DNA from: Blasia pusilla
Taxonomy: Eukaryota
Direction of reading: 5' to 3'
Assembly (NCBI GenBank): GCA_050084515.1
Contig: CM114271.1
Coordinates: 5,394,001-5,458,000 of the forward strand
DNA length: 64,000 nucleotides
Shown here: piece by piece, positions 1-55,394 of the stretch
How positions within the stretch are numbered: position 1 is the first letter of the stretch
Layout: every line of letters begins with the position of its first letter
Position numbers and translations under genes: made by a program
Notes under the pieces: generated by a model
What the model was told of the DNA's origin: nothing
Seen by the model: only the letters and a program-made list of their open reading frames with translations
Databases searched by the model: none

Positions 1-143
1 CCCTAAACTAGCCGTCGCGCCGGCGGCGGCGGTCGCCATCATAGTCACCATCAACGCTCAAGCGTCCGCCATCAACACTCCATCATCGCCGTCCGTCGTC
101 GGCGATTGCCGCCGCCTAGCGCCGCTCAGAGCCGTGTTCAGCC
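1..143 (+). mobile_element. Left part of an older, interrupted copy of the gypsy element's 5' leader
   Basis: 1-55 resembles 1208-1264 (CCTAAAC.AGCCG..CGCCGGCGGCGG..GTCGCCATCATAGTCACC). The same leader sequence resumes at 10381. Confidence 0.65.
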
Positions 144-664
144 TATCACGACTGTTAGGATAGATCGGTGGGATCTAGCAGAGCGTCTTCATAAGTAGTG
201 GAGGACAGGCCCAAGAGGTCGAGAATGATCTGTTGAGGCCCCGGGAAACCTGAGAGAGCAGGTTTCCCCTTTGTTTCGGCTCATTTAGAGCCATATAGAG
301 AAACTTGCTATTTCGCGTAAGTTTCCATGTTGGGGATAGTTGACTTTCTATTTTTGGTAAGTGGCCCTTGACCTCCTACATCAGGTCAAGAGCCAAGGAG
401 GTGACTTGGGAGCATAGGTTACTATGGAGAGAGCTTGGAAGAGGGGAGGGGTATACCTCAAGGAGAGAGAGCTTGAGAACTCATTCTCTCTTTGTTGAAC
501 CTCTTGGCATGAGGTGACAGAGTTATGGTCCCTTGCCTTGTGAGTGTAACCCAAGCCTCTCATTAGGAGAGTGGGTTTGGTTTGACATGAGAGAGAGAGA
601 GAGAGTGCACATCTTTGAGAGCTATGGTGTGAGATGGTGTAGAGAGAGATTGGATCTTACTTTA
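144..664 (+). repeat. Terminal direct repeat A1
   Basis: Aligns to 9749-10253 with roughly 20-25 substitutions by eye plus small indels. Identity ends after GGATCTTACTTTA. Confidence 0.95.
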
Positions 665-1242
665 CAAAGAGAGAATGAGAGAGTGAGAGAGCTTCATGGG
701 GGAGCTCGCTGGTCACTCGCTGTTTTTGCAGGTTGGGGACCGTATTCCTCGTTCAACGGCTCATGGGAGTGCTCACGGGAGCAAGGGCTGCTTCGATTGT
801 TCTTTGCATTTGCCGATTTTTTGTGTGGAAGAGTGGCGCACGGAAGCGCTGCCCAATTTTTGATAGGGATTGAGTATGGGGGCGGGTTGCCCCATGCCGG
901 TGCTCTCGGGAGCACCATGTAGCTTGCTGATTTATATTTTTATAGGTTTTACATTTTTGTTGGGAGAAATCAGCGTGGAAGCGCTGCCAAATTTTATGTA
1001 GGAGAAAGAGACATTGGGATTTACAACAATCCCTGTCAGTTTTTACTGAAATGTTTGATTATAAATATTTTTTGATGCTGTTGTAGATCGTGAAACTAGG
1101 CACGTTGTGCAACAAATAGTGCGCAATTTGGAGTTGCGAGAAAAAAGTTATGGTCAATCTTGCAAAATTGCTATTGCTAGGCGATTTTTAGGGTTAAATT
1201 GTTCAAATCCTAAACCAGCCGCTACGCCGGCGGCGGCCGTCG

Positions 1243-1339
1243 CCATCATAGTCACCGTCAACGATCCATTTTCAACGGTCAACCGTCACCATCATAGTCA
1301 CCGTCAACGATCCATTTTCAACGGTCAACCGTCACCATC
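1243..1339 (+). repeat. 46-bp tandem duplication in the element leader
   Basis: CCATCATAGTCACCGTCAACGATCCATTTTCAACGGTCAACCGTCA occurs at 1243 and 1289. Confidence 0.9.
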
Positions 1340-2208
1340 AATGGTCAACCTTCAGTTGTCCACCGTTTGGTTGCCATTGCCGCCATTACGGAGTGGAGGG
1401 TCTTCCATGACGTTCGTTGATTCTCTAACTTGCGTCGCCAGTACGTACTTTGTTTTGGCCGCCACCGTCATCGCAGTTTCATCATCAACCAGTGATGGCA
1501 GATGACCTTTGGTTATGGTGTTTGAGTTTTGATTTCATGCTGCTATGTTGTGATTGGTAGCCGCTCGACGACGATTGAGTATCGTGCCGTGACGCTCGTA
1601 GCCGCAACGCACCGCCGATTGCCGCGCCGTGCCGCTTGTGGCCGCACCGCACCTTCTCGATCGCAGAGCCGCACCGTCATTGTGGAGCAGAGTGTGGGTT
1701 TATTGTTGATTGAGAAGGGTATGCCGCCGAGTGCCGCATCCCACCATCGAGGGTCGTGCCGTTTGTAGCCGTTCCGTGCTGCCTACAACGCCGCACCGTT
1801 CCGCTGGGACCGCTCTGTCTATCGAGGAGTTTTGAGCAGCGTCACTACGGGAGGAGTATGACTTTCTGATTGGAGGAGTTGTCTCCACGACCGAGTTGGG
1901 GTCGAGATTTGCAATTGCTGAGGAGCGACATCGACATGTGTTCAGGTTACCCATTATGGTCCTTTACCTTGCACGTGTGAGGGAATCTGGGATTTGGGTA
2001 GTTTATTTGGGGATATTGGGTGTGTAGATGCTGAGAGCATCATTTATGTATGTGGTTTAGGGGACATAGACCTGTGTGGGATGTCTGGAATTGAGGGTAG
2101 GTTGTCGATGAGATGATAGCCTGGTCAATTTGCCGCACCACCCCGCGTATTGCCGCACGTTACACGTCTCGGGGAGGGAGAGTGTAGATCGAGTGCCGTA
2201 TGTTTGGG

Positions 2209-3720
2209 ATGAGTGATTGAGGGATTACTCATGAGGTTCAAAGTGATCAGGTGAGAGGGGCACGAGGGTCATCACAGAGTCCGTTCAGGACTTTGAGAGG
2301 CGAGGTGGTGAACCCAAGAGTAGCTCTAGAGGTTTTACGCGGAGTGGTGCGAGGTTCCGAGGGTCTCCACGTGAGGGACCATCTCGAACTCCTTCTGTGT
2401 CATCGTCAGATGAGGGGGAGGGTGTAGAGGAGTTTGTGAGCACATCGCCATACATTGTGAGTGGTCCTACTAGTTGGGCGTAGGAGATGGACGACCGGGG
2501 TAGAGTACCGCGTAGGTTTTCAGATGCAGTAGGCACGATTGAGTTGCACGATTTCATAGTAGAGTTTAGGAGTTGGTGCGACTCCCAGTGGGCCAGGAAC
2601 TCTAGAGAGTTGAACCCGTTTACAACATGGAATGGTATATTCCAGCATTTAGACGGGGCGCCCATTGACGATTACCATGAGTTCTCCCAGAGATATGCAC
2701 GTGAGATCGAGGCGTGGAGGCTCTACTATGACCTACATTATGTGTCATGGACGGAACCGTTCCCAGTTGAGGAGGAGGAGTTAGGAGAGGCTACTTCCTC
2801 TTCCACTAGTGACATTTTAGGAGGGGTCACTTGCACGGGAGCAATTGTACCGTCTAGTCGAGTTCATCCCAGGTTCAACCCTGTGGTTGAGTTCTTTGCT
2901 GAGTTGAGGGCGAGCTACCAGGGGATACGGACGGAGAAGTTGCGGAGCATCCACGACTTCCAGAGGCGCCCGGGTGAGAGTTTGCGTGAGGCTTACAATC
3001 GCTTGCGCCGGTTGATCAACATCACTCAGGGGTGACAGAGGCTCAGGCTATCCAATCATGGTACGCGATGCTGGACCGGACTCTGCGAGACACGGGTGCG
3101 GGAGGGGGTGCTTCTTATGAACACCTCCCCTACGTTGAGAGATGTTTTTAGGACCGCCAAGAACATTGAACCCAACTTGGCGGAGGAGAGCGTAGCCACC
3201 ATGGGTTCTGGGCGAGAGCAGTCACAATTATTTGCACCACCTGTGCAGCAACGTGGACTCCGAGATAGATCGATTGTGGCACCACGAGCTCAGGGAGGAT
3301 ACCAGGAGGCCGTGCCACAGAGACCTGCGCCTTCATGTGTGGCTCAACTGCAGCCGTCTAGTATTACTTGTTGGTCATGTGGTGGAGCCCATCATCAGCG
3401 TGATTGCCCTCGTCAGGGTCATGGACGTGTGCCTTAGCATGGAGGAGGAGATGGTGCTGCACCAGGAGGTTATCAGTGTGACTATTGTGAAAGGTTATGG
3501 TCATACACGCGCTAGGTGTTTCGGTTTACATCCTGAGTTACGTCCGGACCGAGGGCCAGAGAGGGCACCAGAGCGATTAGCCGGTCCGGGTGGGCTAGAG
3601 ATCGTGCACCATGTGGTCCCATTGGGGGACGAGGAGCTGGAGTTGCCCGACAGGGCGGTGGAGCTGCCAGTGGAGGAGGTAGAGTACCACAACCTAGACG
3701 CGGCAGAGACGCGGACGTAA
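2209..3720 (+). pseudogene. gag, frameshifted, with two CCHC-type zinc knuckles
   Basis: Gag-like FQRRPGESLREAYNRLRRLI. Knuckle CWSCGGAHHQRDC at 3369-3407 and frameshifted CDYC..GYGHTRARCFGLHPE at about 3477-3535. The start is approximate. Confidence 0.8.
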
Positions 3721-4419
3721 AGGCCGGGATGGTCGCCGATCTGGCAGCAGCTACAGGAGCAGATTGCCGCTATGGCATTGAGGTTACCCGATGCCGGATC
3801 CGTGGCATCGACATCATATGGAGCAGCCAGAGATCTGGAGGATCCTGGTTGGATGTGCGGGGTTGCCCAAATGGAGGCCGCCGCAGTTGTGACACGTGGA
3901 GCAGCCGCAGAGTTGGATCCACAGCGAGGGGAAGCCAGAAAACAGACTAGGCTTCCTCAGTCTTTCACGTTGTCCGAAGCAATGAGGACCCCATCGATGG
4001 GTCCTCATCAAAGTTCCTGGAGAGTTGGTGATGTTGTTGGTGTGCAGGCACGTAGGGCGTTGGGAGGAGCGAGTGCGACGACTCCTATTGTTGATGCTCA
4101 GGAGGGGCATGTGTCGAGCACGTTGTTGGGGGCGGCCACCGTTGTGTACCACACTCCTTTATTTTCTGCTTCCGATGTTATAAGGTTGGGGGTAGGCTCG
4201 CCGAGCCTTTTCGGCTAGCCGCTTCGCTATGTGAGCGCAGAGTTGGAGTTCCTGCATCACGTTCAGAGGTGATTGCAGAGGAGGTGATGGACGTGCCCTT
4301 GGAGCGGATGCTCGGACCGTCCACGTCAGATTCATGGCAGGCTGCGGCTGCTAGGATGGCAAAGATGTCCGCTAGACCCGCGATAGACCATGCCATGGCT
4401 TCTCCTGGTGTTGTGTTGC

Positions 4420-4800
4420 TGGATAACCGAAGAGAGGTCTTCCAGTTGGTGAGTCTTGGAGGTAGAGCTTTTAGTCCGCAGTGCGTCTTGTTGGATTCGA
4501 GAGCGCAACCCCTGATGTTGGGGAAAGCGTCATTCAGAGGATTGGGCTTGACGAGAGCCGATGTGGAGCCTTGTCCATTCCGGATACATACATCCTTGGG
4601 TGGAGCGAGTACCACATAGTATATCACCCGACAGGAGGTCGTGGTGAGGATTCGCCTTGGACATCCTACAGATGAGTCCGTGGTGCGCGCCAAGGCGATA
4701 GTGATTGATGTAGAGTCCTACGACGTCTTGGTTGGTGGAGCTGTGTTATACCCGATGGGTTTTTCCCTGGATTATTGGGAGGAGTCAGCATCCTACAGAC
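4420..4800 (+). pseudogene. Retroviral-type aspartic protease
   Basis: VLLDSRAQ, a D-S-G motif with G>R (D at 4494), and the downstream YDVLVGG motif. One in-frame TAG at 4617. Confidence 0.8.
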
Positions 4801-5207
4801 CAAGATGGCAGTCAGGTGATGGGCGCCTTAGCTCATTACCCGTTCGATTCACAGGTGCAGTGATCGAGCAACGGCCAGGAAAGATGGCGACCTTAGCAGC
4901 ATTTAGCAGTGCCATCACTTGGCCTAGTGATTTGATTGAGGGACATGTGCATGCAAAGGATACTCCCGTTCCTGACATTTCTATAGAGAGGAGTGTTATG
5001 GTAGCTGCATCATTCCGTGGAGGAGAGGTGCCATTGTGGGGCTCGACTGAGGAGCTTCGACAATTGGCAGATGAGCACGTGCAGACCGCGTGGAGCGAGG
5101 CGTTTGCACCGCAGCGTGACGGGTCTGAGGAACCCAAGGTAGCAAGGAGTGCTACGATGACACCCTTGGATACCACACCCATTATGTGGTGTACCCCGGA
5201 GGAGGAT

Positions 5208-6135
5208 ATTCGAGTGTTAGATCTCTTTGGAGGGATTAGCACCGAGTTAGTTGTTGTTTTGCAGGCATGAGTGCGAGTACAGCAATACCTGTATGTGGAG
5301 AGTGATGATGTTGTGAGGCGCATCTCACTACGATATGTGGTGCAGTTACGCCTACGTTTTCCCGACTTATTGTCTACGTCCGCAGTACAGGGGTACCAGA
5401 ATACCCTACCGAGGGATATTTCGTTGTTGGGGGCGCAGGACTTAGAGCGGGTAGGGACCATTGATTTGGTCATTGCCGGTTGGCCATGTCAGGGCCAATT
5501 GAGTGCTGGACGAGGCAGCGGGTTGGCTGACACTCGGTCCAGGTTATTTTGGGAGATGTTGAGGGTCTTACGGTAGTTACAGGAGCACCAGTCTCGTTCT
5601 CCAGCCTATATTCTGGAGAATGTGCCGATCTTAGGAGACTCCAGGTCACGGGTGGTGACGAGTGCTCATCAGGTGCGTTCTTGGATCAGCCCAGCAGTGT
5701 TCTTGGATGCAGCGAGTATAGGTTCTAGAGCCCATCGCCCGCGTCTATGGTGGACCAACTTGGTGCCCCATGCGGTGTTATGGAGGGTGTATGCGAGAGT
5801 GGAGCGCCCCTCCCATTTTTATTGGATTTCATTCTGGATCCAGGTCGTCGATCACAGGCAGTGAGGCACGATGATCGACCACCGTTGACTGTGGTCAACA
5901 GGGTAGGCAGGCCGCGGGCAGCCTTGCCCACGTTTGTTAGTTTTCCCGCTTCCTATGCATACAAGAAGGCTGGTTTTGGCTTGGTTTGGGATGACCAGGT
6001 TCAGCGGTTGGTGGAGCCCAACGCCGACGAGAGAGAGCGAGCGATGGGATTTACCATAAGAGTGACGGCAATACCATCAATGTCAGAGGCATCACGACGC
6101 CATGTCTTGGGTCAGGGGATGGACATGAACTGCAG
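5208..6135 (+). pseudogene. C5 cytosine DNA methyltransferase domain (DNMT3-like, non-permuted) inside pol
   Basis: Motif I RVLDLFGGI, II YLYVE, III DI, IV IDLVIAGWPCQG (PC at 5484-5489), V SRLFWEMLRVL, VI YILENV (5616-5624), VIII AHRPRLWWTNL, IX ERERAMGF, X RRHVLGQGMD. Stops at 5268 and 5574, frameshift near 5820. Confidence 0.93.
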
Positions 6136-6462
6136 CGTCGTATGAGATCGGGACAGATCACAGTGGTTGTGTTGGTGAGCCCCATGCCAACTGAGACGGT
6201 GGAGGCACTGGCTGGGGGCGAGACCCGAGGAGATCTACGCACCGGGGGAGATCAGGAGAGACACCCTTGGACTTCTTGGGATGTTTTGTAGGTACGCAAG
6301 GAGATGATTGCCACAACATTGAGCGTGGTTTCGGGCACTGCACGTGGAGGAGATCAGAGTTTGCAGTTGGCTGCAGGAGAGCGGCCGAGTGTTTTTGTCC
6401 GAGACAGGGTTGCACCATAGCAACCACCGATACCCGCACCGGAGAGTCCGACCGTAGTCACG

Positions 6463-7880
6463 ATGGAGACTTGGGAGCCAGATATGGGCCCTAAGTTGAC
6501 AGGAGGAGAGCGGCGCCGAATACATCAGTTCCTCAAGAGTTATAGGAGCTGCTTTGCATTTAGCATGGAGGATTTGGGTACGCTGAAGGGATCGGGGATC
6601 CGCATTGAGTTGTCGAGTGATACGCCGATCTTCCAACAACCCTACAAGTATAGTGATATGGAGAGGGCTCTGATTCAGAGTAGGAGCCAGGACTTGGTAG
6701 GAGCTCGACTACTGGAGATGTCGCATGGGGAGTATGCATCTGCCATTGTCATGCTCGCCAAGAAGGATGTGCATGGCAACTGGACGGATAGGCGGATGTG
6801 TGGGGATTACCGACCTATCAATCGGCAGACAAAGTCCGATAGGTATGCCATGCCCACCCCTGAGGAGATATTTGATGCGATTGGTCACGCAAAGATCTTC
6901 AGTTCATTGGATTTGGGAGCCGGATACCATCAGCTGCCTATCAGATTGGAGGACAGGCAAAAGACGGCATTTTGGGGCATCGATCCTCACGGGAAGGATT
7001 GTTTGTACCAGTGGCGGTTCGTACCATTTGGGTTAAAGAACGCCCCAGTTGAGTTTCAGATGGTCATGGATAGGATCTTGGCTGGTCTGGATTTTTCTAG
7101 GTGTTATATTGATGACATTGTAGTCTTTAGCGCCACGGTTGAGGAGCATGAGCGACATCTAGAGGAGGTGTTTCAACGATTGCAATTACATGGGCTGAAG
7201 CTACATCCAAGCAAGTGCAAGTTCTTCTACGACCAGATTGAGTATTTGGATCATACGATATACCCAGGGGGCCTTGGTGTTCAGGAGACGAAGGTAGAGG
7301 CTATCCCACGCATTCCACGCCCTACAGATGTGAGCCGTGTTCGCGCATTCATGGGATTGGAGAACTTGTATCGGCGATACGTCAAGGGATTGAGTTCGAT
7401 TGCAAAGCCTCTGACCTTGCTGACCAAGGTGGATCACGAGTGACACTGGGGGGATGAGCAGGAGCGAGAATTTCAGTTGCTCAAGGACAGGTTGACGTCC
7501 GTGCCCATCTTGAGGAGACCGATCAAGGGGCATCCTTTCCAGATGCACACAGATTGGAGCACGTTGGGGCTTGGAGCGGTGCTCACCCAACATGATGATG
7601 AGGGTAGAGAGTTCATGGTGGCTTACGCTAGCCGCTCGAACAACACTCTAGAGGCAAAGTACATCTCATATGAGGGTGAAGTGCATTTCAGGTGTTACTT
7701 ATTCGGCAACCCTTTTACCATCATCACTGATCATCAACCAATGAAGTGGTTGATGGAGTCCGACAAGCTTACAAGAAAGCTTGCGAGATGGGCTCTGTTG
7801 TTGCAGGAGTATGATTTTCAGGTGGTACATAGACTGGGGACGCTCAACCAGGATGAGATGGGTTGGTCGTAACCCATGCC
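6463..7880 (+). pseudogene. Reverse transcriptase and RNase H
   Basis: RMCGDYRPIN, LDLGAGYHQL, PFGLKNAP, YIDD (7105-7116). RNase H motifs HTDWS, GAVLTQ, VAYASR and TDH. In-frame TGA at 7441. Confidence 0.97.
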
Positions 7881-8229
7881 CAGTCCGAGATGCGATTGGA
7901 GCTCGATGGCATGGAGAGAGTGATGAGGAGTCGGTGCCAGGATGGCATCGCCACCCATTTAGGCATGTTGGCTATGGAGAGCCAGAGTGTGGAGACCGAT
8001 GGCGCAGGTTAGTGAGAGTCCTGGATCTCGAGGCCGGTGAGGACACAACAAGTGGCCGAGATATTCATGATGATGGAGTAGTCTTGGAGTACCTTTTTTG
8101 GGCGTTCCAGCACCTTGTGGATGCTAGAGAGCGGGATCGGATCCTCAAAGGGACAAACGGTTCCGTTGGGAGGGGACACATGTTTTGAGGGTTTGGGAGG
8201 ATGGCATAGTACACGTGAGCGGCATCCTT

Positions 8230-9330
8230 CGAGAGAGCACAGTAGTCATGGAGTTGGGTCACTTTGGGGTGAAGCGGACGATGTGCCTTGCTCAAGATTC
8301 AGATTGGTGGCAAGGTTTGCAGATTGACGTTCAACAGTTTGTTTCCAGGTGCATGGTGTGTGATCGGGTCCGAGCATCATTCAATGCTCCGACTCCACAG
8401 TTGCATCCATTACCGCTCATGGGCTTAGGGTATAGATGGAGTTTGGATTTTGCAGGACCTTTGCCTTTGACGGAGCATCACAGTCGTTATGTGTTGGTGA
8501 TGATCGAGCACTTCTCGAAGTGGATCGAGTTGGTTGCATTGCCTGACAAAGTGAGTGAGGGAGTAGCTTATGCCTTCCTTGACAAAGTGCTGAGTCATAT
8601 GGCGCATTGGCTGAGATGTTGACAGACCAAGGTACCGAGTTTTGTGGTGAGTTCCAAGCCTTGTGTGATTAGGCGCTGATCGACCACCGCACGACTTCGC
8701 GAGATCATCCCGAGGCGGATGGATTAGCGGATAGAGTTGTGCAGACAATGAAGAGGGATTTATGCAAGTATAGCTTGCAGAGAGGTCACCTAGGAGATTG
8801 GGACCTCCAGTTGCCATGGTTGGCGATGGGATACAGATTCAAAAGGCATGCATCCTTAGCGTCTTTTTCACCGTACTTGCTACTTTATGGCCGAGAGCCA
8901 GATTTACCTACGGCCATTCATCGAGATGCTGGTGAGGTGCTGGACCTTGATGACCCAGATAGATGCGAGCATGTTCTCAGAGGGCTGAGTTGTTTCGGAG
9001 AGTGATGCCCATGGCGTTCGAGAACTTGGCGATTGCGCAACATCGAGATACGTTGAGGAATGCGACTATTCGGGATGGTGGTTATCGACCAACTATCTGG
9101 AGGTTTCATCAAGGAGATTATGTCTACTTGCAGCAAACGGCACCAACGACGTTGGATGTAACTGCATGGCGCACTATCCTGAGAGTGCGTGACGTTTTGC
9201 CATCCGGTGTTCTCTTGCTGGAGGGACGCGATGGTATGGTATGGAAGGACCATGTGCGTAATTATGCGCCATATCACCTTCCTAACATTGATGGTACAGT
9301 AGATTCAAGCTTAGCAGTAGTTCCTACGGC
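8230..9330 (+). pseudogene. DDE integrase
   Basis: GHFG...CMVC zinc motif, WSLDFAGPLP, TDQGTEF (frameshifted), HPEADGLADR (third catalytic E appears as D), FSPYLLLYGREP. Confidence 0.93.
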
Positions 9331-9334
9331 CACG

Positions 9335-9439
9335 ATGCTAGTCTGTGATGGATGTTCGAGAGGTTGGCATATGGCATGTTTGACGCCACCTCTCACTAGG
9401 GTTCTTCGGGGACGATGGATGTGTCCCAGATGTACATAG
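9335..9439 (+). pseudogene. PHD finger at the integrase C-terminus (first CxxC missing)
   Basis: MLVCDGCSRGWHMACLTPPLTRVLRGRWMCPRC matches the C-terminal two-thirds of the C4HC3 PHD consensus. Confidence 0.85.
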
Positions 9440-9609
9440 AGGAGATACTAGGTAGGTTTTTCCAAATTTTTCTGTGACATGGATGATAGGAAGAAAACTA
9501 ACGATGGGGCCACATGAACACCCGACCTTTATGCTCTTTCCTAGAGATGTATGTTGTGGTAGGTAGTTATAGATGGCTATCTGGAGTTAAAGGGACCTAA
9601 CCACCAGCT

Positions 9610-9619
9610 AGGGGGGCGA
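9610..9619 (+). other. Polypurine tract (PPT)
   Basis: AGGGGGGCGA immediately before repeat B1. The same motif occurs at 46330. Confidence 0.7.
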
Positions 9620-9746
9620 TTAGAGATATTTTGATACTTCTCGCCTCTGTGTATGGATGCCATGAGTTAGCATGGGATCGTGTGTGTTTGTGTGTGTGTT
9701 CGATAACAACGATGTATATTTTGTAGCGATGTGTATGCGCATGATA
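9620..9746 (+). repeat. Direct repeat B1 (127 bp)
   Basis: Near-identical to 10254-10380 and ends GCGCATGATA. Confidence 0.95.
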
Positions 9747-9748
9747 AC

Positions 9749-10380
9749 TATCACAACTGTTAGGATAGATCGGTGGGATCTAGCAGAGCGTCTTCATAAG
9801 TAGTGGAGGACAGGCCCAAGAGGTCGAGAATGACTTGTTGAGGCCGTGGGAAACCTGAGAGAGCAAGTATCCCCTTCGTTTCGGCTCATTTGGAGCCATA
9901 TAGAGAAACTTACTATTTCACGTAAGTTTCCATGTTAGGGATAGTTGACTTTTTATTTTTGGTAAGTGGCCCTTGACCTCCTACATCAGGTCAAGAGCCA
10001 AGGAGGTGACTTGGGAGCATAGGTTACTATGGAGAGAGCTTGGAAGAGGGGAGGGGTATACCTCAAAGAGAGAGAGCTTGAGAACTCATTCTCTCTTTGT
10101 TGAACCTCTTGGCATGAGGCGACGAAATTATGGTCCCTTGCCTTGTGAGTGTAACCCAAGCCTCTCATTAGGAGAGTGGGTTTGGTTTGATATGAGAGAG
10201 AGAGTGCACACCTTTGAGAGCTATGATGTAGAGAGAGATTGGATCTTACTTTATTAGAGATATTTTGGTACTTCTCGCCTCTGTGTATGGATGCCATGAG
10301 TTAGCTTGGGATCGTGTGTGTTTGTGTGTGTGTTCGATGACAGCGATGTATATTGTGTAGCGATGTGTATGCGCATGACA
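9749..10380 (+). repeat. A2 (9749-10253) plus B2 (10254-10380), the right end of the element
   Basis: A2 matches 144-664 and B2 matches 9620-9746. Ends GCGCATGACA. Confidence 0.95.
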
Positions 10381-10825
10381 AGCTGTTGTTTGCCGTTGGT
10401 TGTCATTGCCGCCATTACGGAGTGGATGGTCTTCTATGACGACCGTTGATTCTCTAACTTGAGCCGCCATCATGTAATTTTTTTTGGTCGCCGCCGTCAT
10501 CGAAGTTTTGTCATCAACTAGTGATAGCACGTGACCTCGGGTTGATGGTGTTTGAGTTTTCATTTCATTCTACTATGTTGTGATTGGTAGCCGCTCGACA
10601 ATGATTGTGTAGCGTGCCGTGATGCTTGTAGCCACAACGTGCCGCCGATTGCCGCATCATGCCGCTTATGGCCGCACCACACCATCTCGATCGCGGAACC
10701 ACTCCTTCACTAAGGTGTAGAGCATGTGTATTGCTGATTGATGAGGAGGGTATGCCGCGGAGTGCCGCATCCCATTATCAAGTGTCGTGCGGTTTTGTAG
10801 CCGTTCCATGCCGCTAGTGCCACAC
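10381..10825 (+). mobile_element. Right part of the interrupted older leader copy of the same gypsy family
   Basis: Colinear, diverged match to about 1355-1795 (GCCGCCATTACGGAGTGGA...GTTGTGATTGGTAGCCGCTCGAC...GTGCCGCATCCCA). Confidence 0.85.
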
Positions 10826-15331: not shown

Positions 15332-16012
15332 TTCGAGAAAGTCACTTGCAGCTTTCTTGAAGATAGCAGCTTGCCTCATTGTTAAGTTCATTTGAACTAC
15401 AATATGTACATTGCCAGCTTCTTGGGTGTCAAAAGTTTCCTGGTTCTGACTCCTAACTCTGATGAGCAACATGACTAGTTGACATTGGGGCAATGAGGCA
15501 ACAAGCTTTTCAGTCGATCCTCCATTCAGTTGGTGAAAGCATACTTGCTTGCTCAATTTGGAGTAAAAGTTTCATTCAGATTGCTTAGCTTTCACAATGC
15601 TTAATGAAAGGTAATGCTTATCGACACCACGACAAGAAACTAATACCCATGTCCTCATTGAGGTATCTTCGAGAAAGTCTTCGAGAAAGTCACTTGCAGC
15701 TTTCTTGAAGATAGCAGCTTGCCTCATTGTTAAGTTCATTTGAACTACAATATGTACATTGCCAGCTTCTTGGGTGTCAAAACTTTCCTGGTTCTGACTC
15801 CTAACTCTGATGAGCAACATGACTAGTTGACATTGAGGCAATGAGGCAACAAGCTTTTCAGTCGATCCTCCATTCAGTTGGTGAAAGCATACTTGCTTGC
15901 TCAATTTGGAGTAAAAGTTTCATTCAGATTGCTTAGCTTTCACAATGCTTAATGAAAGGTAATGCTTATCGACACCACGACAAGAAACTAATACCCATGT
16001 CCTCATTGAGGT
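15332..16012. repeat. 333-bp near-perfect tandem duplication
   Basis: 15332-15664 matches 15680-16012 with about 2 substitutions. A 15-bp filler lies between the copies. Confidence 0.95.
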
Positions 16013-19638: not shown

Positions 19639-20699
19639 CGCTATCACCTGGGAGCAGTTGTGCTTCCCCACTTTTAATTGCACTCTAAGCCCTACAAGAT
19701 CAAAGAAAAAGGTTGACACTAACGAGATTGACATCAACAGTTGAGAGCATTCTACTTGGTGCTTAAGCATCGTTGTGAGTTCGTACATTGGCTGCACTTC
19801 CCCTGGAGGTTCGGTTAACGCGATCCAGTTAATGTTTCTGCTCTATTTCAATTTCCCCTTGACCAGCTCATGATTTCGGTAGTCTAGATGGAGCCCCTTA
19901 TGGACAGGCTAGCTGAATTAATATTGGCATCAAAACACTTGGACTCTGACAGATCTTCCATCGATGTGCAAAGATTACCATCTGTTACCGATCCAGGGAC
20001 CTCCAGTGCGCCAAATATGTAGGTGCCATCTCAAACATCACTCACAGATAGACCCTGCCCTAGCATATCGTGTAGACAGAGATGGCTAGAGTTGGAGAAC
20101 CTAAGTTCGTTTAATGCAGAATTTGTGAAAGCAGGAAACCCCTCCACATGCTCAAACCCTGACAAGTCATTCTGGGATATCTCACCAATAATGGCAGAAA
20201 AGGAAAATAATATCACCAAGCTCCTGGCATTCAGTTAAAATTCAGCTACTAAAGTGAGAAGGGCTCAAGAATTTTTAAATTTTTTTTTTAAAATACATAC
20301 CAATGAGTTATCAGCTCAACACCTCTAAGGACTCTTTCAAATTCTGCATAAGTGCGAACTTCTGGGACACATTCTGCTGGGCACCTGATTTCCGCGTCTG
20401 CCACTCGAGCTTCCTCTGCCTGACTAGACAACAACCCAATCGAAAGTAAATAAAACTATTTGAGAAAACACAATCTAATCGACTTCCTGCAACTCACTCA
20501 GGAAACTCTCAAACTTGGGGGGAACACCAAAACCAACCCAGCTATCAGCAAAGGCGCTATTTAGAAATAGCTAGCATTCCAAAAATGCACTTATTCCTCC
20601 AGTATGGGAGGCGAATCACGTGCAATCGGAACTCGTACATCACATCACAGTGGAAAGAGCAGAGACCCATTTGGCAGACTTGCTTCAAAAGTAACTCAA

Positions 20700-21435
20700 T
20701 CCAGAATGAAAGCGGCAGAGGAAACTGAATTCATCGCAGCCAATTTGGCACTTCAGATCACAACAAGAGTAGAGATGGACCCAGTGTGACATCTGCTTCC
20801 AGGGCGTCTCAATTCAAGATAGGAGCTGCAGAGGAAACTGAATTCACTGCAGCTAACTTGGCACATCAGATCACAAGAACACGACTAGAGTTGGAAGTAA
20901 TTTGACACGGCTGCGTCCGGCGTGGATCGATTGAGAATTGAACCTGAGCCTTTCCAGAGCGAACGGAATCCAAAACAGCGAAAAAAGCAGAGGGAACTGA
21001 ATTCACTGCAGCCAAAAATTCCGCACATCAAGCAGAGCAGATAGTGGGACAATTGAGAATGGAAGCTGCAAAGGAGACTGAGTTCACTGCAGCCGAATAT
21101 TCCGCACATCAAGGAGAGCGGATCAGAGCATAGCAGAGAGTGGGATAACTGAAAATGCAAGCTGCAAAGGAGACTGGATTCACTGCAGCCAAAAATTCCG
21201 CACATCAAGCAGAGCAGAGACTGGTACAATTCAGAATGGAAGCTGCAGAGTAAACTGAAATCGCTGTAGCCAGAAATTCGGCACATGGAGCAGAGCAGAG
21301 AGTGGGACAATTAAGAATGGAAACTGCAGAGGAAACTGAAACCGCTGCAGACAAAATTCGGCACATGGAGCAGAGTAGAATAGATCGGACAGGGGCTCCA
21401 TTGAGAATGGAAGCTGCACAAGAAACTGAACTAGC
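20700..21435. repeat. Degenerate minisatellite, about 81-96 bp units
   Basis: Repeated GAATGGAAGCTGCAGAGGAAACTGAATTCACTGCAGCCAAAAATTCCGCACATCAAGCAGAGCAG core, with anchors near 21063, 21159, 21240, 21321 and 21411. Confidence 0.88.
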
Positions 21436-22166
21436 TGAATGCCCAGAACAACAGCCACCGGTCCATCCACGACGGCAACTTCATAGACCCCCGACACAAT
21501 GGGACTCAAGGCCACGAAAATCACCTCCCTACAGTATCTTGGCGTCGCAGACTCTCATTCGAATGCAGCATCCGGTCGATTCCGCTCACCTCCATCCTCC
21601 TGAAAACCCTCTCCCCCCCTTCCATCCCTGAGCTCCACCAGTACACCGGCGACGAGGAATCCATCCACAGCTCCGGAGACGCCGGCGATCCAGTACTCCA
21701 CCAGAGAGTGATCTTCGTATGACCGGAAGCGCGCCAATGGGGCGTCTCAAATTGATGTCCATAGTCCCGGACGTCTTTTCCCATATATTTTTTATGGTTT
21801 TACGGGCAGGTTAGGTGCTCGGTGTGGAAAGGAAAGAGGTAGAAGCTAGCCTCTTATGACCGGACATAGAGACATACATCCTATTTCTATTGTAGGCAGC
21901 GGGTCTCCACAGCTTTGCAATCAATGGACTTAAGCAACGGGCTCATGATATAGGAGATGTGAGCGCTAGTAGCCCACTTGGTGGTAGTGACGTCTCTCTG
22001 GGTGTTGTTGGCATTGTTTATGCAGTGGGTGAGTTTGGTTGATAGGAGGGGTGCCCCCTTTTCTGTTTCCGGGCCGATTGTGGCCTTCGAGTATTTGACT
22101 CTTTGAGTCCCCCCCTTTTTTGTATTTCGGATGGGTTTTCCATCACCTTCTTTTATTGCCAAGTAA

Positions 22167-28762: not shown

Positions 28763-29210
28763 TCTACACTATTATGGGAGAGGACCTCTTTGCTTTATAA
28801 CCTCCCCTTCTCTCAGCATTTTCAACCAATATTCGAACGTTTTCTTGACTTATGAGATCGCTCAAAAAACAAACAGAATTTTAAAAATTAATTAGTATTT
28901 TAGGAGTTGATTTAAATTCGGACTTACACTATCTTGACACATATCTCATCATTTTCAACTAATATTAGATTGATTTCTTGATTTATGAGATCGCTCAAAA
29001 TTTGTTTGAAAGATAATAAAAATTTTAAGAGTTAATTAGTATTTTGGGAGTTGATTTAAATCCGGGCTTACACTATCTTGATACATATCTTTAAGATCAT
29101 ATGATATTTAAGACAAAAAATTATTCGAATTTAATTGTACATTATGAATGGTAAATCAGAATTATACTTTACTTTCAATATGTGCATAGCATAGCATGGG
29201 CACCAACTAG
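28763..29210 (+). mobile_element. Non-autonomous Helitron with an internal duplication
   Basis: A|TCTACACTATTATGGG ... GCATGGGCACCAACTAG|T, an A/T insertion site without TSD. It interrupts a GAGTATATG/GGACC repeat that continues on both sides. Confidence 0.75.
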
Positions 29211-35019: not shown

Positions 35020-38000
35020 TCAAATTATAACCTCAAACCCGCATTGTGTCCTCCTCAACCATTCCAGAACGGAGGCACAGGCTGCTGGGTCCGTGAATAT
35101 TCTGCATAAATGACATACAACACTCAGGCATTATATTTGCAAGAGGATATGGCAGGTACTTGCTTGCAGTTCTGCTGGATACTCAGAGACCTCAGCTGAC
35201 ACTGGTCTCTATCAGAGTTTGGAGTACTTTGCATTCAAACAAAGGTACTCCATGCAGGGATGGCACAAGAAGAGAACATCAATAAAGTGAGGATGATGAC
35301 GGAATTAAGATTTACCTGTTTTGAGGTGTATAAGTTTTGAGAGCTTTGAGTTCTCTTTCATTCCCTGTCGTTCGCTCATCTATTTTTGTCGACAAAGGGG
35401 GCGGTGCTAGAAAGCCAGACTGCCTTTTGAACTCATTCTCCAGTAGACACACAACTGAGGTCTGCAAATTACAATGAACTCGGGTAAAGAGACCAAACTT
35501 TCTTTTAAATAGAAAATGTCAAGCGCAACAAAAAGACAGCAAGGGGACTCATGAAATACAGCAACAGTAAAACCACATCCAACCACAGTAGAGAACAGAG
35601 AGACCCCATTACAAACAAGAGGTCATATACCTCTGAAATCTTATCACCTTGATCTTGGAAAAGCTAATCTAACCACAAGTAGCCAGTTAAGGATAGCATC
35701 TCCTTTGCCTAGAAGCTAAGCTATCCACCAATGAACCCCTAAACATAGGATTCCCACGGACCCCCCTACCACATCAAAAGTCCATTAGGTTGGCTGTGCA
35801 ACCAAAAATCCATTATGTCTTGTGTAAACCAAAAAAAATCTATAATGAGTTAAATTAATCATAAACTGGAAACCCTCTCAATTCAACTCCTACTCATGTG
35901 GAGGTGACTTTCATTTAGGTGGAAAAAGGCTGGATGCCTAGACATTGTTTTGCATTGGAAACTGTCGGGGCAGTACTTGGTAGATGACATGTGTCAACCT
36001 ATTTTTATTCTACTCGTACCTTTTTTATAAGGACATCCCTTGCTATGCATAGCTGGTGGTTTCTATTTTATTCTGCTAACACCCCTTCCTACTATATAGG
36101 TTTGTTCACTTCGTCATTGCTTGCCATCATGTGGCCTCTTTTCTCTATTTGGATCCTCTATCTCTCCTTCTTTGGAATCCCAATCACACTGATACTTTCC
36201 ACAATCGGCACATTCACATGCGAAGGTGGGACCAAAGCTAATTTTTTGGCTGTGAGATTCCCACTTCCTTTCTTGACTTACTTTCAGCACTTGTACCTTT
36301 TCATCTTGGGAATCTCCTAATCCCCTTTACCTATGCTAATTTGACTCTTGCAGTTCCTCTCACCTCGTTGATGGATGTCCTTTTTTTCCTCGGCCTATCC
36401 CTATTTTTCCTTGGACTATCCAAATCCCCCTTGCCTATTTTAACTTGGCTGTTCACACTCCCCATCTCTTTCTTCTATTGTTTTCTGCAACACCTACATT
36501 TTATTGTTTCGATGGTTCCAATCCCACACCCCTCTTCTACTTTCCCTCCCTCTTTCTTGATTCTATTTCTAACCCTCTACTTTTCTCTTGTTTGGACTCT
36601 AATTATTCCCCTTACCTATTCTACTTTGGATCTTCTAGTTCCCCTTGTCTTTAAGGGCTTACTTTTTTCAACCTTATTTATTTTCTTATTTGTCTTTCCC
36701 CCCTCCCTCCCACCATTCTATTCTAATTCGACTGTTCCAGTTTTAGTTGTCTTTTCTTGATAATTTTCAACCTTATTTGTTTTCTTATTTGTCTTTCCCC
36801 CCTCCCTCCCTCCCTCCCACCATTCTATTCTAGTTCGACTGTTCCAGTTTAGTTGTCTTTTCTTGATAATTTTCAACCTGTCACTTTTTCCTTTTTGGAC
36901 TATCCTAATCCTAAACCTCCCTTTTACCTATTTTGACTTTACTCTTCTCGTTTCACTTGTCCTTTCTTGGTCGATTTTCAAATCCTCCAACTTCTCTTCA
37001 TTTGACTTCACTAAACCCCCTTTGCTCTCTTCATCCTCAAATTCAAGTTGACTCTTCTACTTCCCTTTGTGTTTTCTGGAGGATTATTTTGGCTCATCTA
37101 CACTAGAAGAATCCTCTAAAATCCTTTCTCGGTTTACTCTCTTTCATCCCTTTCCATCCCTAAATAACAAGGTGACAGCATTGGATTTCTATTGGATTCT
37201 CTCATAGTCTCTCATTTTGCGATGAGAAATAGTGCAAACACCACTCATTTTGTTTAGTATAGTATAATACTGAACCTAGGCTTCCAAGCGTTTGACAATC
37301 TTATACACCACCTCTCTTAAGAAGATATCTCACAAAGTTTGAGAACCCTATACTCATTTGGAGTATAGTACATGTCTTGCTAAACCATGTTATTGTGTAG
37401 TTAGTGGAATCCTAATCTACAGGTAATTTACTTGTGGATTTCTACTCCCATCTTGTTTTTGAGAGCACCCCTCATCTTTACCTACCTTTCCTTCTGCTCT
37501 CAAGGTTACCATATGACGTATATTATGCATGAGTGGAATGTAAAATGATGCAACACTCTGCTTGCAAGAACTGAAAAGCAAAATGTTGAAACAAGACTTG
37601 GAAGAAGCTATCCTCAGCTCTTCACAAAGATGGTGATTTGAGCTTTACTTTTCACGAGTGAAGAGATCCTGGGACTGTGGATATGGGAGCATTCCAAGAT
37701 CCAGAATTGGTTCGGAAACCCCCATTTGAACCATCCAGCTGACTCTCAAACTAACGAGTCCAAGAGCAGATAAATCTATTTGGACTTGAGATGGGCGGGC
37801 CCGTGCGTCATTTCGTTAGCCTCGTTCAAGAAAGATATCGAACACAACAGGACTAGGAATTGACAACCTCAAGGAGACAGCTGACCACAACAAACAAAAC
37901 ATTCCAGTGAAGGCGATAATGGAAGGACGTGCCGAAGCGTACCGTTGAAGCTGAGGCATCAATCCAACGGAACTTGTCATCAGACCGAAACCAGGTCAGC

Positions 38001-46329: not shown

Positions 46330-48083
46330 AGGGGGGCGAGTTGTGGTACACTTGTGTTTGTGGATGTTCTCGTCTATGTTATGTATGTATGTGAGTATGG
46401 TATGTAAGCGATGTATGTTATATGACGATGTGGATTCGTACGACATCTATCATGACCATACGGATTAGGTCGTAGAGTATAATGTGCTAGTAGAGGCCAT
46501 ACCTTATGTAGGGCCGTAGTGTCTAGCTAAAGATGCGGTTTCATACATAGGGTTGGGGGTTACTCCCTTGAGGATGACTTTTCCAGTAGGGCCCGCTCTT
46601 AGGTTGGAGGATATAGTGTGGAGTGCACTCAAAGAACAGTTAGTTCTTTGAATTGAGCCTGTTGCGTTGGGAGTTAGCCTTGGTAGTGAATAGAGTTCTT
46701 GGCTATGGTGGTTCCCGCAAGCTTCAACCTGGATTCTCGACCCTCATGTCGCGACCCTCATGACCAAACGAGTGTCAAGCGGAACATCAGAACATTAGCG
46801 GGCTCACGCTAAGATGGTTTGCGCGTTGGAGTAATCTCGAAGAAGAGACAAGAGACGAGACGCAAGCGAGGCTTCGCGTTTCAGATGTTATGGTCGCGAA
46901 TGAGAAACCTGGACCAAACGCGGAACAAGACTTGAAAGGAGTTGAGTCTAGGAAGTGGGTTGCCAAAGGAAGAATCCGGATTTGGAACGCCACTAGCATT
47001 TGAGAGTTTCCGACTGTATTTATAACCATAAATTTTAGCGTTGAGATGCGTTTGGATTAAACAAGGATGCATTGGAAGGCTTATGGAAAGCCGGTTCAAA
47101 CGCACTAAAGATCTCTGCAAACGCATAAGCAGTGGCTGAGAAACAACCCACAAACGACTGTAAGTAGAGTCGGGTTGAGGGCCACAATGAAGGGCCCGAC
47201 CCTCCTTTTCCAAAGGGGGGAGTTTATTGGAGAATCCTAGAAGTACTAGTAAGGGGGAATGTCTCCGAGAGTGCTTGGAACTCGAACCCCACTTTGGGCG
47301 CCATGGGGCGGCTCAAAGGCATGGAACGGATCCAGAGTTTGGGGTTGGGTTGGAAAACCTGAACCAAGTCTACGGAGGCGATTTTAGACATCCCTCTTGG
47401 ATTCCACCCCGTGACTCAATTACTTGGGTCTCGGTTTGGAACTCACACGAGGTCCGTTGAACAGTTGGGATCGCTAGGCACGCAAGTGCCGTTTTAGGTT
47501 CATGGACTAATCAGGAAGTCTATTCCAAGTCTTGAAGGACTTGCCATGTTTTGGAAACGAGGAATTAATGAAAGTTGAGCTTGATGAGATGCCGAGTTGA
47601 GAACTTGGTGGGTTGGAACGCTGATTGGCCCGGACCCGACTAACGAGAGTGCGTGTTTGGTGCAGATTGGTGATGAGATCGTGTCCTACTGAATGTACGT
47701 TTCGCAACACTAAATATTGACGTTCAAGGAGAGTAGGGGCGCGACAAGTAAGGCCCGCTCTTAGGTTGGAGGATATAGTGTGGAGTGCACTCAAAGAATA
47801 GTTAGTTCTTTGAGTTGAGCTTGTTGCGTTGGGAGTTAGCCTTGGTAGTGAGTAGAGCTTTTGGCTATGGTGGTTCCCGCAAGCTTCGACCTGGATTCTC
47901 CCATCGTGGAGTGGGTTTGGCTCGATTGTATGTGATTCTATACGTGTTTTATGATAGTAGGTCTTTCACGGATTTCAATTGTGGTGCACTTGTGTTTGTG
48001 GATGCTCTCGTCTATGTTATGTATGTATGTGAGTATGGTATGTCTTCGATGTATGTTGTATGACGATGTGGATTCGCACGACA
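46330..48083 (+). mobile_element. 3' end of a second split-repeat retroelement: PPT-B1'-A'-B2'
   Basis: AGGGGGGCGAG (46330-46340). A 105-bp B1' at 46341-46445 matches B2' at 47979-48083. A' starts TATCATGAC at 46448 after a 2-nt spacer. Confidence 0.8.
46747..47746. mobile_element. Solo-LTR-like 1.0-kb insertion
   Basis: Termini TGTCGCG...CGCGACA form a 7-bp inverted repeat. There is a TATTTATAA box near 47018. Its last 52 bp recur at 48084-48135. Confidence 0.7.
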
Positions 48084-53386: not shown

Positions 53387-55244
53387 TGACCCTGTAATAT
53401 GCTTCTAAAGTGCCATTGTCAAGCTGACATGAGTGTATATTACAGTAGTTGACGGTTTCAGTTATTCACATGGTCAGTTTCGTTTTTCCATCAACATCTG
53501 CTCCAAAGAGGGGCATATGATGGTCGGGATTCATGGTTTGAATCTCCAGCCTCTACGAGTGAGTTGGGTTGCTTTTTATTGGGGTTCTCAAAATGGTAGA
53601 CATCCTGCCCCTACAACTTTCCGACCTGGCTTGAGATTCAATCATCTCCTGGACAGAGGCTCTTATAACAGTGCATTGTAGACCTTTAATTTGTGGTGCA
53701 GAGCGTCCAGAACTGAAAGGAATGAGGTCATGGTCTATGGGTACTGTTGTACTGCAGGAATGGCAAACGCGGGGCTGAAAATTCTGTAGTCCAGGAGTGG
53801 TATTTGAATTGTTCTGATGCCGCTGATTGGCAAGGTGGACCCGTGGAACAGGTCTGGTGGTGAACAGTATACAATAGACGAGTACCTCATGAGCAGAGAA
53901 AGTTCCCACCCTAGATTATAGCTCTCTTCCAGATGAGGTGCACAATTTACAGCATTTGCCGTCCAAGAAATAGATCTCCCATCTGGTGTCTTCACAAAGA
54001 AAGGCTTCTTAGTTAAGTTGCCTGCTGGTTGCATATATTATGTTTTATGTGATGATTCGAGACTCTATCTGGTGATGGGAGAGCTGGTAAATTGTAATAT
54101 CTCAGAATACTACCGAGAGTGTATGTCTGCCTCTGTGATATGAGCTGGTTCTAAAGCGTGTCTGGTAAAGTCGTTTAAGTTCCAAACCTACTTGACCCCT
54201 ATCTTGTTAAAAGCCAATATCTCCAACTCATTCTGCCTCCTGGGTATCAACAGCCAGTGCAAGGAGATGAGCGAGTGGTATCGACTTTTGCGACGATTGC
54301 CATGTAATTAAGAATTGTGAACAGGTCCACACAGGTTTCTTCACACCATCGATTCATGAGATCATGTAGACATGGAATTGCAACTTATAGTTTAGTAACT
54401 GGTGTACTTGGGTTTCTTTACTCCATCTAACCACTGCTTTGAATCTCGTAAATGAGATACCTACCATCCATTAGAGTATGACATGTGAAGATATGCTACA
54501 TCCTCACTACATTTAAACGCAAGTGATGCTCGAAGGAGGGTTGGATCCAATAGTTTCATGTCGTCTAGGTCCAATGTGCACTGATTTGAATTGCGGTTGC
54601 GAGGAGTAAACATTCCAGTGGGACAAAAAGTATTCTATTGAAATCATTTTATAGAGAAATTTAGAAGATGGAACGGGGAGTGTATTCAAAGAACGTTGGA
54701 TCCATTCGTCTCCAATGATTTGAAGACCAATCTACACTAGTAGAACATGCCAAAGAACGAAACTACCATATGTAACCTGGAAAAAGTACATCGAAAAGCT
54801 TGTACAAGCTTTCGAAGAAGCAATAAAGTGGATACAATAGATGATTAAAATTATTGCAGAATGTGTCAAATCTTCACATGCTACTGTTTACTTGCATGAG
54901 TTGCCCTTTGGAACTGGTGCTTACATGTTAATAAGCACCGACCCCAAGGGTAGAACTATTTTCATAGTATAAAAATATAAGTGGCCTACATATAGTGTAA
55001 CATATGCAATGTAATATATGAAAGGTTTTTGGTGTTTACTTGACTAGTGTTGCATGTTAGTTTCTTATTTGCTTGTAACTTCAACCCATACTATCCACCC
55101 ATTAAACTAGTCACCATGCCCATCTAAAGGGTTGTTTATAAAAGATTTCTTTTAGTTTTTTTTTTATTTTTAATTTCAAACTCGTAATAAACACTCCAAT
55201 TTGTGATCCGAAATATTTCATGGCCTTTGCAACAATCTGTATTA

Positions 55245-55394
55245 GCAACCTCCTTAATAAACACCCCACTCTTTAAATAAAAAGAATCCCACTCCTCCAA
55301 GAAAACTACTCCATTTATTGGCAACCTCCTTAATAAACACCCCACTCTTTAAAATAAAAAGAATCCCCACTCCTCCAAGAAAACTCCTCCATTT
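55245..55394. repeat. 76-bp tandem duplication
   Basis: GCAACCTCCTTAATAAACACCCCACTCTTTAAA...CCAAGAAAACT.CTCCATTT occurs at 55245 and 55321. Confidence 0.85.

Follow-up and report, generated by a model that had tools for sequence, protein, structure and literature searches.

How does a retroelement with a DDE integrase come to carry, instead of two long terminal repeats (LTRs), the split direct repeats of a DIRS element? The question is raised by positions 144-10380 of a 64,000-nt stretch of Blasia pusilla DNA (contig CM114271.1, positions 5,394,001 to 5,458,000; hereafter the window), which are a degraded copy of a high-copy streptophyte Ty3/gypsy lineage. In textbook LTR elements, the ends that are inserted are those made by reverse transcription. 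In this element two independent sets of signals, the polypurine tract (PPT) with a self-priming primer-binding site (PBS) on one side and the TG...CA ends with target-site duplications (TSDs) on the other, disagree by a circular permutation. As judged from these signals, the integrated copy reads as a circular permutation of the reverse-transcription product, A - internal - [B-NN-A] / B, in which the bracketed B-NN-A would be one intact LTR and the bar the joint of the U5 end with the U3 start of the complementary DNA (cDNA).

The element and its repeats are as follows, where LTR denotes the repeat that reverse transcription would define (derived below) and U3, R and U5 are its unique 3', repeated and unique 5' parts.

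144-10380, plus strand: whole element, from base-by-base reading
144-663, plus strand: A1, predicted 3' two-thirds of the LTR (end of U3, then R and U5)
9610-9618, plus strand: PPT, AGGGGGGCG, directly abutting B1
9619-9746, plus strand: B1, predicted 5' part of U3, ending in CATGATA
9747-9748, plus strand: 2-nt spacer AC (family consensus GC) between inverted-repeat arms, forming an internal CA-NN-TG site
9749-10252, plus strand: A2, starting with TATCAC and matching A1
10253-10380, plus strand: B2, fused straight onto the last A2 base (predicted joint of U5 end and U3 start) and ending in CATGACA, the right end of the element

In the self-comparison of the window, A1 (143-664) and A2 (9748-10253) were 92.9% identical over 522 aligned bases (E 0.0), B1 (9619-9747) and B2 (10253-10381) were 95.3% identical over 129 bases (E 4e-56), and no further copy of the window-type A or B was found in the remainder of the 64,000 nt. 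The four repeats named in the original prediction, which had been made from the sequence of the window, are therefore all present, and its other statements on the layout were also correct: A1 is followed directly by unrelated sequence with no B adjoining it, the PPT is next to B1 and not to A2, and the B1/A2 join reads CATGATA-AC-TATCAC base by base, that is, CA-AC-TA. We thus confirmed that the A...B-A-B arrangement is real. A1 begins with TATCAC where the family consensus is TGTCATG. The order A1-internal-B1-A2-B2 is that of the split direct repeats in PAT/Ngaro-type DIRS elements, and the two complete, identical terminal LTRs bounded by PBS and PPT that characterize Ty3/gypsy elements are not present, the left end having only A and the right end B-A-B.

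The layout was then examined across the family, using metagenome relatives in place of a census of the host genome. The sample consisted of 80 metagenome loci fetched with an alignment of 11 relatives spanning reverse transcriptase (RT), RNase H (RH), integrase (IN) and PHD finger, by which 547 of 600 candidate stretches were confirmed. A and B were mapped on all 80 loci, each locus was compared with itself, and loci with the same flank were removed (L060=L061=L062, L034=L054, L016~L065, L004=L005, L033=L041, L011=L050 and L023=L058). The order PPT/B-NN-A/B was found at 21 independent metagenome 3' ends in addition to the window, and PPT/B followed by unrelated flank, without A2-B2, at 17 independent 3' ends. 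The PPT abutted B in every copy and was next to A at none of the 38 independent related 3' ends; B was beside A in none of the 16 independent 5' A copies, and none of the 12 complete copies had a conventional LTR pair. Six complete relatives were of the A...B-A-B type (L033, L035, L046, L047, L061 and L075) and five of the A...B type (L008, L010, L011, L017 and L072), the latter with no terminal repeats whatever. The A...B-A-B layout occurred with the same PPT, spacer and joint in two sequence groups, the PPT of group 1 being identical to that of the window (AGGGGGGCG). The claim that the left end, as inserted, differs from the base that follows the PPT therefore holds family-wide, and the outcome that had been named as speaking against it, namely that most copies would be conventional with the PPT beside A, was seen at 0 of 38 ends and in 0 of 12 copies. 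All of the complete relatives were degraded. The copies reading A-internal-B may stem from one-LTR forms, from linear cDNA that was cut internally, from recombination between B1 and B2, or partly from assembly collapse.

Elsewhere in the window, a second, rearranged partial copy of another subfamily was found at 46337-48083 with no pol upstream. Its order is PPT, B, a TC spacer and the start of A, followed after about 1 kb by the 3' part of A and by B, with a flank-like repeat of 45-55 nt on either side of the last A-B; its B is about 80% identical in DNA sequence to the B of metagenome group 1.

Where reverse transcription would begin and end was read from the following signals in and next to A1.

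451-456, plus strand: TATA-like box GTATAC, about 28 nt upstream of the predicted start of the RNA
480-495, plus strand: predicted RNA 5' end and self-primer (CTCATTCTCTCTTTGT), a 16-nt perfect complement to 664-679
664-679, plus strand: predicted PBS of the self-priming type (ACAAAGAGAGAATGAG), directly after A1

A perfect complement of 11-17 nt between primer and PBS was present in 8 of 17 rows and was reached by none of 200 shuffles; its length was 16 nt in the window (480-495 against 664-679), 17 in L033, 15 in L047, L017 and L039, 13 in L011 and 11 in L061. The self-primer stretch lies inside A, 118-185 nt before its end. The pairing was retained by three differing sequence versions (window, group 1 and group 2), that is, it covaries, and each version has a TATA-like box about 25-30 nt upstream of the self-primer stretch, the relatives carrying GTATAAAAG or GGTATAAAG at the same distance as the box of the window. 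In the three copies folded, the primer/PBS helix closed both the minimum-free-energy and the centroid RNA structures (z -2.5, -2.7 and -4.1). A PBS motif of the tRNA-iMet type was absent beside A1 in all 17 rows at up to three mismatches, and a TGGG(G)GAG motif was rejected as a PBS, being 20-35 nt downstream and too distant from the A end. Complementarity, covariation and TATA spacing were thus observed, the RNA 5' end being a predicted one with no read-start peak, and we predict a PBS of the Tf1-type self-priming kind. Since the PPT abuts B and this PBS follows A, the LTR defined by reverse transcription would be B-NN-A, in which U3 would consist of B, the spacer and the first part of A, and R-U5 of the rest of A. 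The original prediction did not contain the self-priming PBS that fixes the LTR in this way, and it is added here.

The inserted ends gave a different boundary. In the family, A starts with TGTCATG and B ends with CATGACA, a 7-nt inverted repeat with TG...CA termini. Anchoring the boundaries on these terminal motifs, we compared the four bases outside them in the 12 complete copies. All four matched in L033 (AAGG) and in L010 and L011 (TACA), three matched in the window (AGCC/AGCT), L017, L046, L061 and L075, and two or fewer in L035, L047, L008 and L072. Three or four matching bases were thus found in 8 of 12 copies as compared with 8 of 132 mismatched left/right pairs (6%; P 7e-8), and at shifted offsets the flanks matched in merely 0-3 of the 12 copies. 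TSDs were thus found at the A start and the B end, where the original prediction had proposed to look for them. TG...CA inverted termini with a TSD of 4-6 bp are typical of Ty3/gypsy elements, and the family has them, the window copy itself reading TA...CA; the absence of TSDs that marks DIRS elements was not observed, 4-bp TSDs being found. Duplications of 4 bp at TG...CA ends are the signature of a DDE integrase. L010 and L011 are independent insertions that have the TSD TACA in common and whose right flanks both begin with TACAC, and this common sequence may hint at a target preference.

For the window copy, the insertion point could also be read from a paralogous site.

140-143, plus strand: left TSD AGCC, matching the right AGCT at three of four bases; insertion point backed by the empty site at 1209-1782
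10381-10384, plus strand: right TSD AGCT
10385-10814, plus strand: right flank, resembling the element's own leader together with 2-139
1209-1782, plus strand: leader segment resembling both element flanks (paralogous empty site), from self-comparison
1237-1328, plus strand: 46-bp tandem duplication within this leader segment

The flanks at 2-76 and 10396-10814 were 80-83% like the single contiguous internal stretch 1209-1782, which reads TTCAG-TTGT at the point matching the position of the element. Since both flanks match one contiguous paralogous stretch, 144-10380 was inserted as a whole, and the resemblance of the flanks to a leader suggests that the target was probably the leader of a related copy. 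In the DNA contigs, depth over the flanks was as high as over the element interior. The homology of the outer relative stops at 10814, and its other parts are absent from the window.

The two joints of the right end behaved differently. At the B1/A2 joint, the spacer was 2 nt long in all 25 rows listed, the consensus spacer GC completes the palindrome CATGACAG/CTGTCATG (CA-GC-TG), and substitutions were seen with no insertions or deletions (indels), as is expected for sequence copied within U3. At the A2/B2 joint, the last U5 base is fused to the first base after the PPT, and 5 of 18 independent copies had an indel exactly there: an extra T, which is the next PBS base (L073), an extra C (L021), a loss of 1 nt (L076), an extra G, which is a PPT base (L013), and an 18-nt insertion (L022). 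L047 has a G at the A/B joint, likewise a PPT base, and indels were sparse in about 40 nt on each side. The A/B joint varies by 1-2 nt at the primer-removal sites, and by its sequence it looks newly made from the two cDNA ends.

Comparison of the two Bs pointed to their origin. No fixed position-specific difference was found between B1 and B2, the majority base differing in 3 of 209 and 1 of 119 columns, and copy-private variants were common to both Bs in 15 of 18 copies, from which it follows that both Bs derive from one template per cycle. In a nearest-neighbour test, which is weakened by the star-like phylogeny, a B was closest to the other B of its own copy in 9 of 22 and in 4 of 14 cases. 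In all seven complete A...B-A-B copies, the B pair was 1.5-9 percentage points more alike than the A pair, both ranges being 79-95%.

Given that the inserted ends lie within the repeat built by reverse transcription, the cDNA must be re-cut or circularized before insertion. We favour, with a probability of roughly 55%, a route that would produce the permuted copy by joining the cDNA ends in the manner of a 2-LTR circle, which integrase would then open at the CA-GC-TG palindrome. Reverse transcription would yield LTRs reading B-NN-A, the two cDNA ends would be joined, integrase would carry out its ordinary 3' processing after each CA of the palindrome, nicking the two strands 2 bp apart, and the molecule, linearized with TG...CA ends, would then be inserted. 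Copies with only A-internal-B would be one-LTR forms or products of B1xB2 recombination and would be unable to supply a 3' R. The original prediction had proposed that the cDNA is circularized or trimmed at the CA-nn-TA junction; this fits all of the findings and is strengthened by the analysis of the PBS and the joints, the step itself being one that we still infer. Palindromic CA...TG joints of retroviral 2-LTR circles are reportedly cleavable internally by integrase, as studies of foamy virus and of HIV-1 in vitro (PMC1180852 and PMC1905944) are said to have found, which would serve as precedent. The retroviral joint differs in that it is a by-product outside the LTR, whereas in the window family the CA-NN-TG site with its 2-nt spacer is permanent in U3 and the A/B joint is kept in integrated copies.

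Several points weigh against this route. The circular or end-joined cDNA is a deduced intermediate, none having been observed. A 2-LTR circle contains two identical palindromes, so that A-B-A-internal-B copies would be expected to be as common as A-internal-B-A-B copies, and there were none among the 16 independent 5' ends. Perfect TSDs were present in only 3 of the 12 copies, and the primer/PBS complement was clear in just 8 of the 17 rows, the other nine being weak or decayed. Mapped RNA reads had no start or end peak at 480 or anywhere in A, nor in B. Some of the B-only copies could have arisen through collapse during the assembly of short metagenome reads, and every examined copy was degraded, with no sign of a currently active element.

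The strongest competing explanation, which we consider unlikely but a serious contender, is a linear substrate with no covalent circle, in which reverse transcription would yield B-A...B-A, the plus strand, having reached the right end, would switch to the left end and so gain a B, and integrase would cut at the outermost internal TG and CA, trimming the left B and anything beyond the right B. Such a route predicts exactly the two observed classes, A-internal-B-A-B and A-internal-B, and forbids the A-B-A-internal-B form that was unseen in the 16 5' ends; the heterogeneity of the joint and a 4-nt overlap, A(G/T)TT, at the L046 joint also fit template switching. Most A/B joints, however, were without microhomology, and integrase would be required to remove 115-520 nt from the ends, which LTR-element integrases are not known to do.

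An improbable third explanation is copying in the manner of DIRS/PAT elements, in which a full-length RNA from A1 to B2 would be copied end to end with the B1/A2 join as the template that restores the termini, a DDE integrase acting in place of the tyrosine recombinase. The layout A1-internal-B1-A2-B2 is indeed that of PAT/Ngaro elements, as far as the consulted parts of PMC8969392 and PMC4157794 describe them. Nevertheless, B1 and B2 share copy-private variants without position-specific differences, which argues that B2 was not copied from the B2 of the parent; the A/B joint is variable at primer-removal sites; and the PPT is placed exactly where B starts and the PBS exactly where A ends. TSDs are also present here, whereas DIRS elements are without them in the portion of PMC8969392 consulted.

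That the window holds a conventional LTR element which was rearranged by chance, altered by a nested insertion or misassembled is barely credible. The window copy is old, broken and nested, and the second copy at 46337-48083 is rearranged as well, which would suit such an accident, but the same layout recurs in 21 independent metagenome copies from two groups, it was reported for a charophyte element (PMC5890265, Fig. 4c legend), and the flanks of the window copy match a contiguous paralogous site.

The coding content of the element is that of Ty3/gypsy. Its plus strand holds a broken pol in the order gag, protease, DNMT3-like domain, RT, RNase H, DDE integrase and PHD finger.

2484-3434, plus strand: gag remnants with a CCHC knuckle (CWSCGGAHHQRDC), from translation; the gag label is our own reading, with no Pfam match
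4197-5183, plus strand: protease-containing part of pol (LLDSRAQPLMLG), interrupted by stops and frameshifts
5184-6133, plus strand: DNMT3-like C5 cytosine methyltransferase domain (PF00145), broken, inside pol between protease and RT
6421-7440, plus strand: reverse transcriptase (RVT_1, E 2e-30)
7444-7869, plus strand: RNase H (RT_RNaseH, E 3e-25)
8128-8960, plus strand: DDE integrase (H2C2 zinc domain and rve core), frameshifted
9329-9436, plus strand: PHD finger at the integrase C-terminus (PF00628, E 1e-9)

The order protease-RT-RNase H-DDE integrase is the one that characterizes Ty3/gypsy pol. The H2C2 and rve domains bear out the assignment to DDE-integrase retroelements made in the original prediction, and a tyrosine recombinase (PF00589) was not found in the six frames of the window element with stops read as X. 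The third catalytic residue of the window integrase is D (LAD) where the relatives have E (LAE); the D, D and E columns were invariant in the 11 aligned relatives, whose proteins carry rve and have RT, RNase H, integrase and PHD finger in a single frame. That the element is a true PAT/Ngaro tyrosine-recombinase element, with a recombinase gene decayed beyond recognition and the integrase as a passenger, has the repeat layout as its only support and is scarcely tenable against the lack of a PF00589 match on either strand of the element, the single-frame relatives with their invariant catalytic columns, and the TG...CA ends with 4-bp TSDs.

The methyltransferase segment places the element among the Gypsy-DNMT3 elements, which have a Dnmt3-type C5 methyltransferase within a Gypsy pol. 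Residues 55-581 of the Marchantia protein P0007 matched 4197-5807 by tblastn, and the DNMT segment of the window and its counterpart in this protein were 64% and 60% identical. Among solved structures, the best matches of P0007 were DNMT3A/3B chains for the DNMT part and Ty3 for the RT. A DNMT-like segment lay upstream of RT in 47 of the 80 related metagenome loci. The RT open reading frame of the window was 72-74% identical to its two best hits, one of them from the liverwort Calypogeia fissa, and 63-72% identical to Marchantia polymorpha proteins that have DNMT and RT together. The PHD finger was kept in most relatives, at the position where chromoviruses have a chromodomain. Neither the DNMT3-like domain nor the PHD finger in pol was part of the original prediction, and both are added here. 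In metagenome and sequencing-run assemblies, two proteins of about 2,015-2,021 aa (P0138 and P0139) had a DNMT-like part and RT-RH-IN-PHD in one frame, and they may derive from intact elements.

The family is abundant and transcribed in the host. From a single host DNA run, 255,593 family contigs were mapped, and 4489 RNA reads were mapped from about 6% of the RNA run. First mates were about 10-20 times more frequent on the minus strand, indicating sense transcripts of the family, and RNA read depth fell to 0.29 beyond B2. Most of the RNA reads were 90-95% like the window copy, which implies that other copies are the expressed ones. Read joints from 9606-9616 to 10253 and from 266 to 9876 were mapping switches between B1 and B2 and between A1 and A2 and were rejected as uninformative on copy types; loose read ends at 342-345 are due to divergent sequence within A.

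A DIRS-like layout with Gypsy domains has been in print since 2018 for KnitGypsy-Dnmt3 of Klebsormidium nitens (de Mendoza et al. 2018, PMC5890265, Fig. 4c legend), a precedent absent from the original prediction, and to this kind the window element adds a new member of bryophyte type. The two have in common a Gypsy pol containing a Dnmt3-type methyltransferase, DIRS-like A-coding-B-A-B repeats as stated in that legend, and a streptophyte host; section 9 and the Fig. 4 legend of that paper give no PPT, PBS, termini, TSD or mechanism. The window element differs in being bryophyte-type, its RT being 43% identical to the single K. nitens RT-RH-IN protein found, and the DNMT search, in which 8000 candidates were scored, gave no K. 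nitens hit. A 2026 preprint mentions 'streptophytes (Gypsy-DNMT3)' and does not discuss repeats, and the literature searched contained no further description of split-repeat Gypsy elements beyond the 2018 legend.

The family has in common with PAT/Ngaro DIRS elements the order A1-internal-B1-A2-B2 and an internal B1/A2 join that unites the right end with the left end. Those elements use a tyrosine recombinase and are without TSDs, according to the consulted part of PMC8969392, whereas the window family has a DDE integrase with no recombinase found, TG...CA ends, 4-bp TSDs, and a PPT and a predicted PBS that would define a complete, permuted LTR. With conventional Ty3/gypsy elements it has in common the order gag-PR-RT-RH-IN, where PR is protease, a PPT, TG...CA inverted ends and short TSDs; it differs from them in that its inserted ends are not the LTR ends defined by PPT and PBS, B, the opening 115-180 nt of the LTR, being absent from the integrated 5' end and an additional B being present at the 3' end. 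In having post-U5 bases complementary to the predicted start of its own RNA and no tRNA-type PBS, it resembles the Tf1/sushi and plant Tcn1 elements as treated in the consulted part of PMC6317226. This is a likeness by layout, and the window family differs in having a PHD finger in place of the chromodomain and an additional DNMT domain.

Apart from the element, the window contains two adjacent 333-bp copies at 15332-15664 and 15680-16012 that are 99.4% identical, and further tandem arrays at 20695-21437, 28811-29090, 36616-36879 and 55240-55399.

Both sequence groups have kept the disagreement between the two sets of signals, and by the 2018 legend (PMC5890265) it dates back as far as a charophyte. 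For genome annotation, LTR finders will mis-call these abundant elements, and A-internal-B copies, having no terminal repeats, are undetectable by such tools. The family is also a natural system for testing whether the normal substrate of a retroviral-type integrase can be an internal site or one at a circle junction. That the whole Ty3/gypsy lineage, from charophytes to bryophytes, obligatorily joins its cDNA ends and has its integrase cut the built-in CA-GC-TG site in U3 is a tentative generalization, to which we would give somewhat less than an even chance. If end joining were obligatory, this would be the first retroelement with a circle-junction-type intermediate as its normal integration substrate, and it would provide a mechanistic bridge among LTR retrotransposons, DIRS elements and pararetroviruses.

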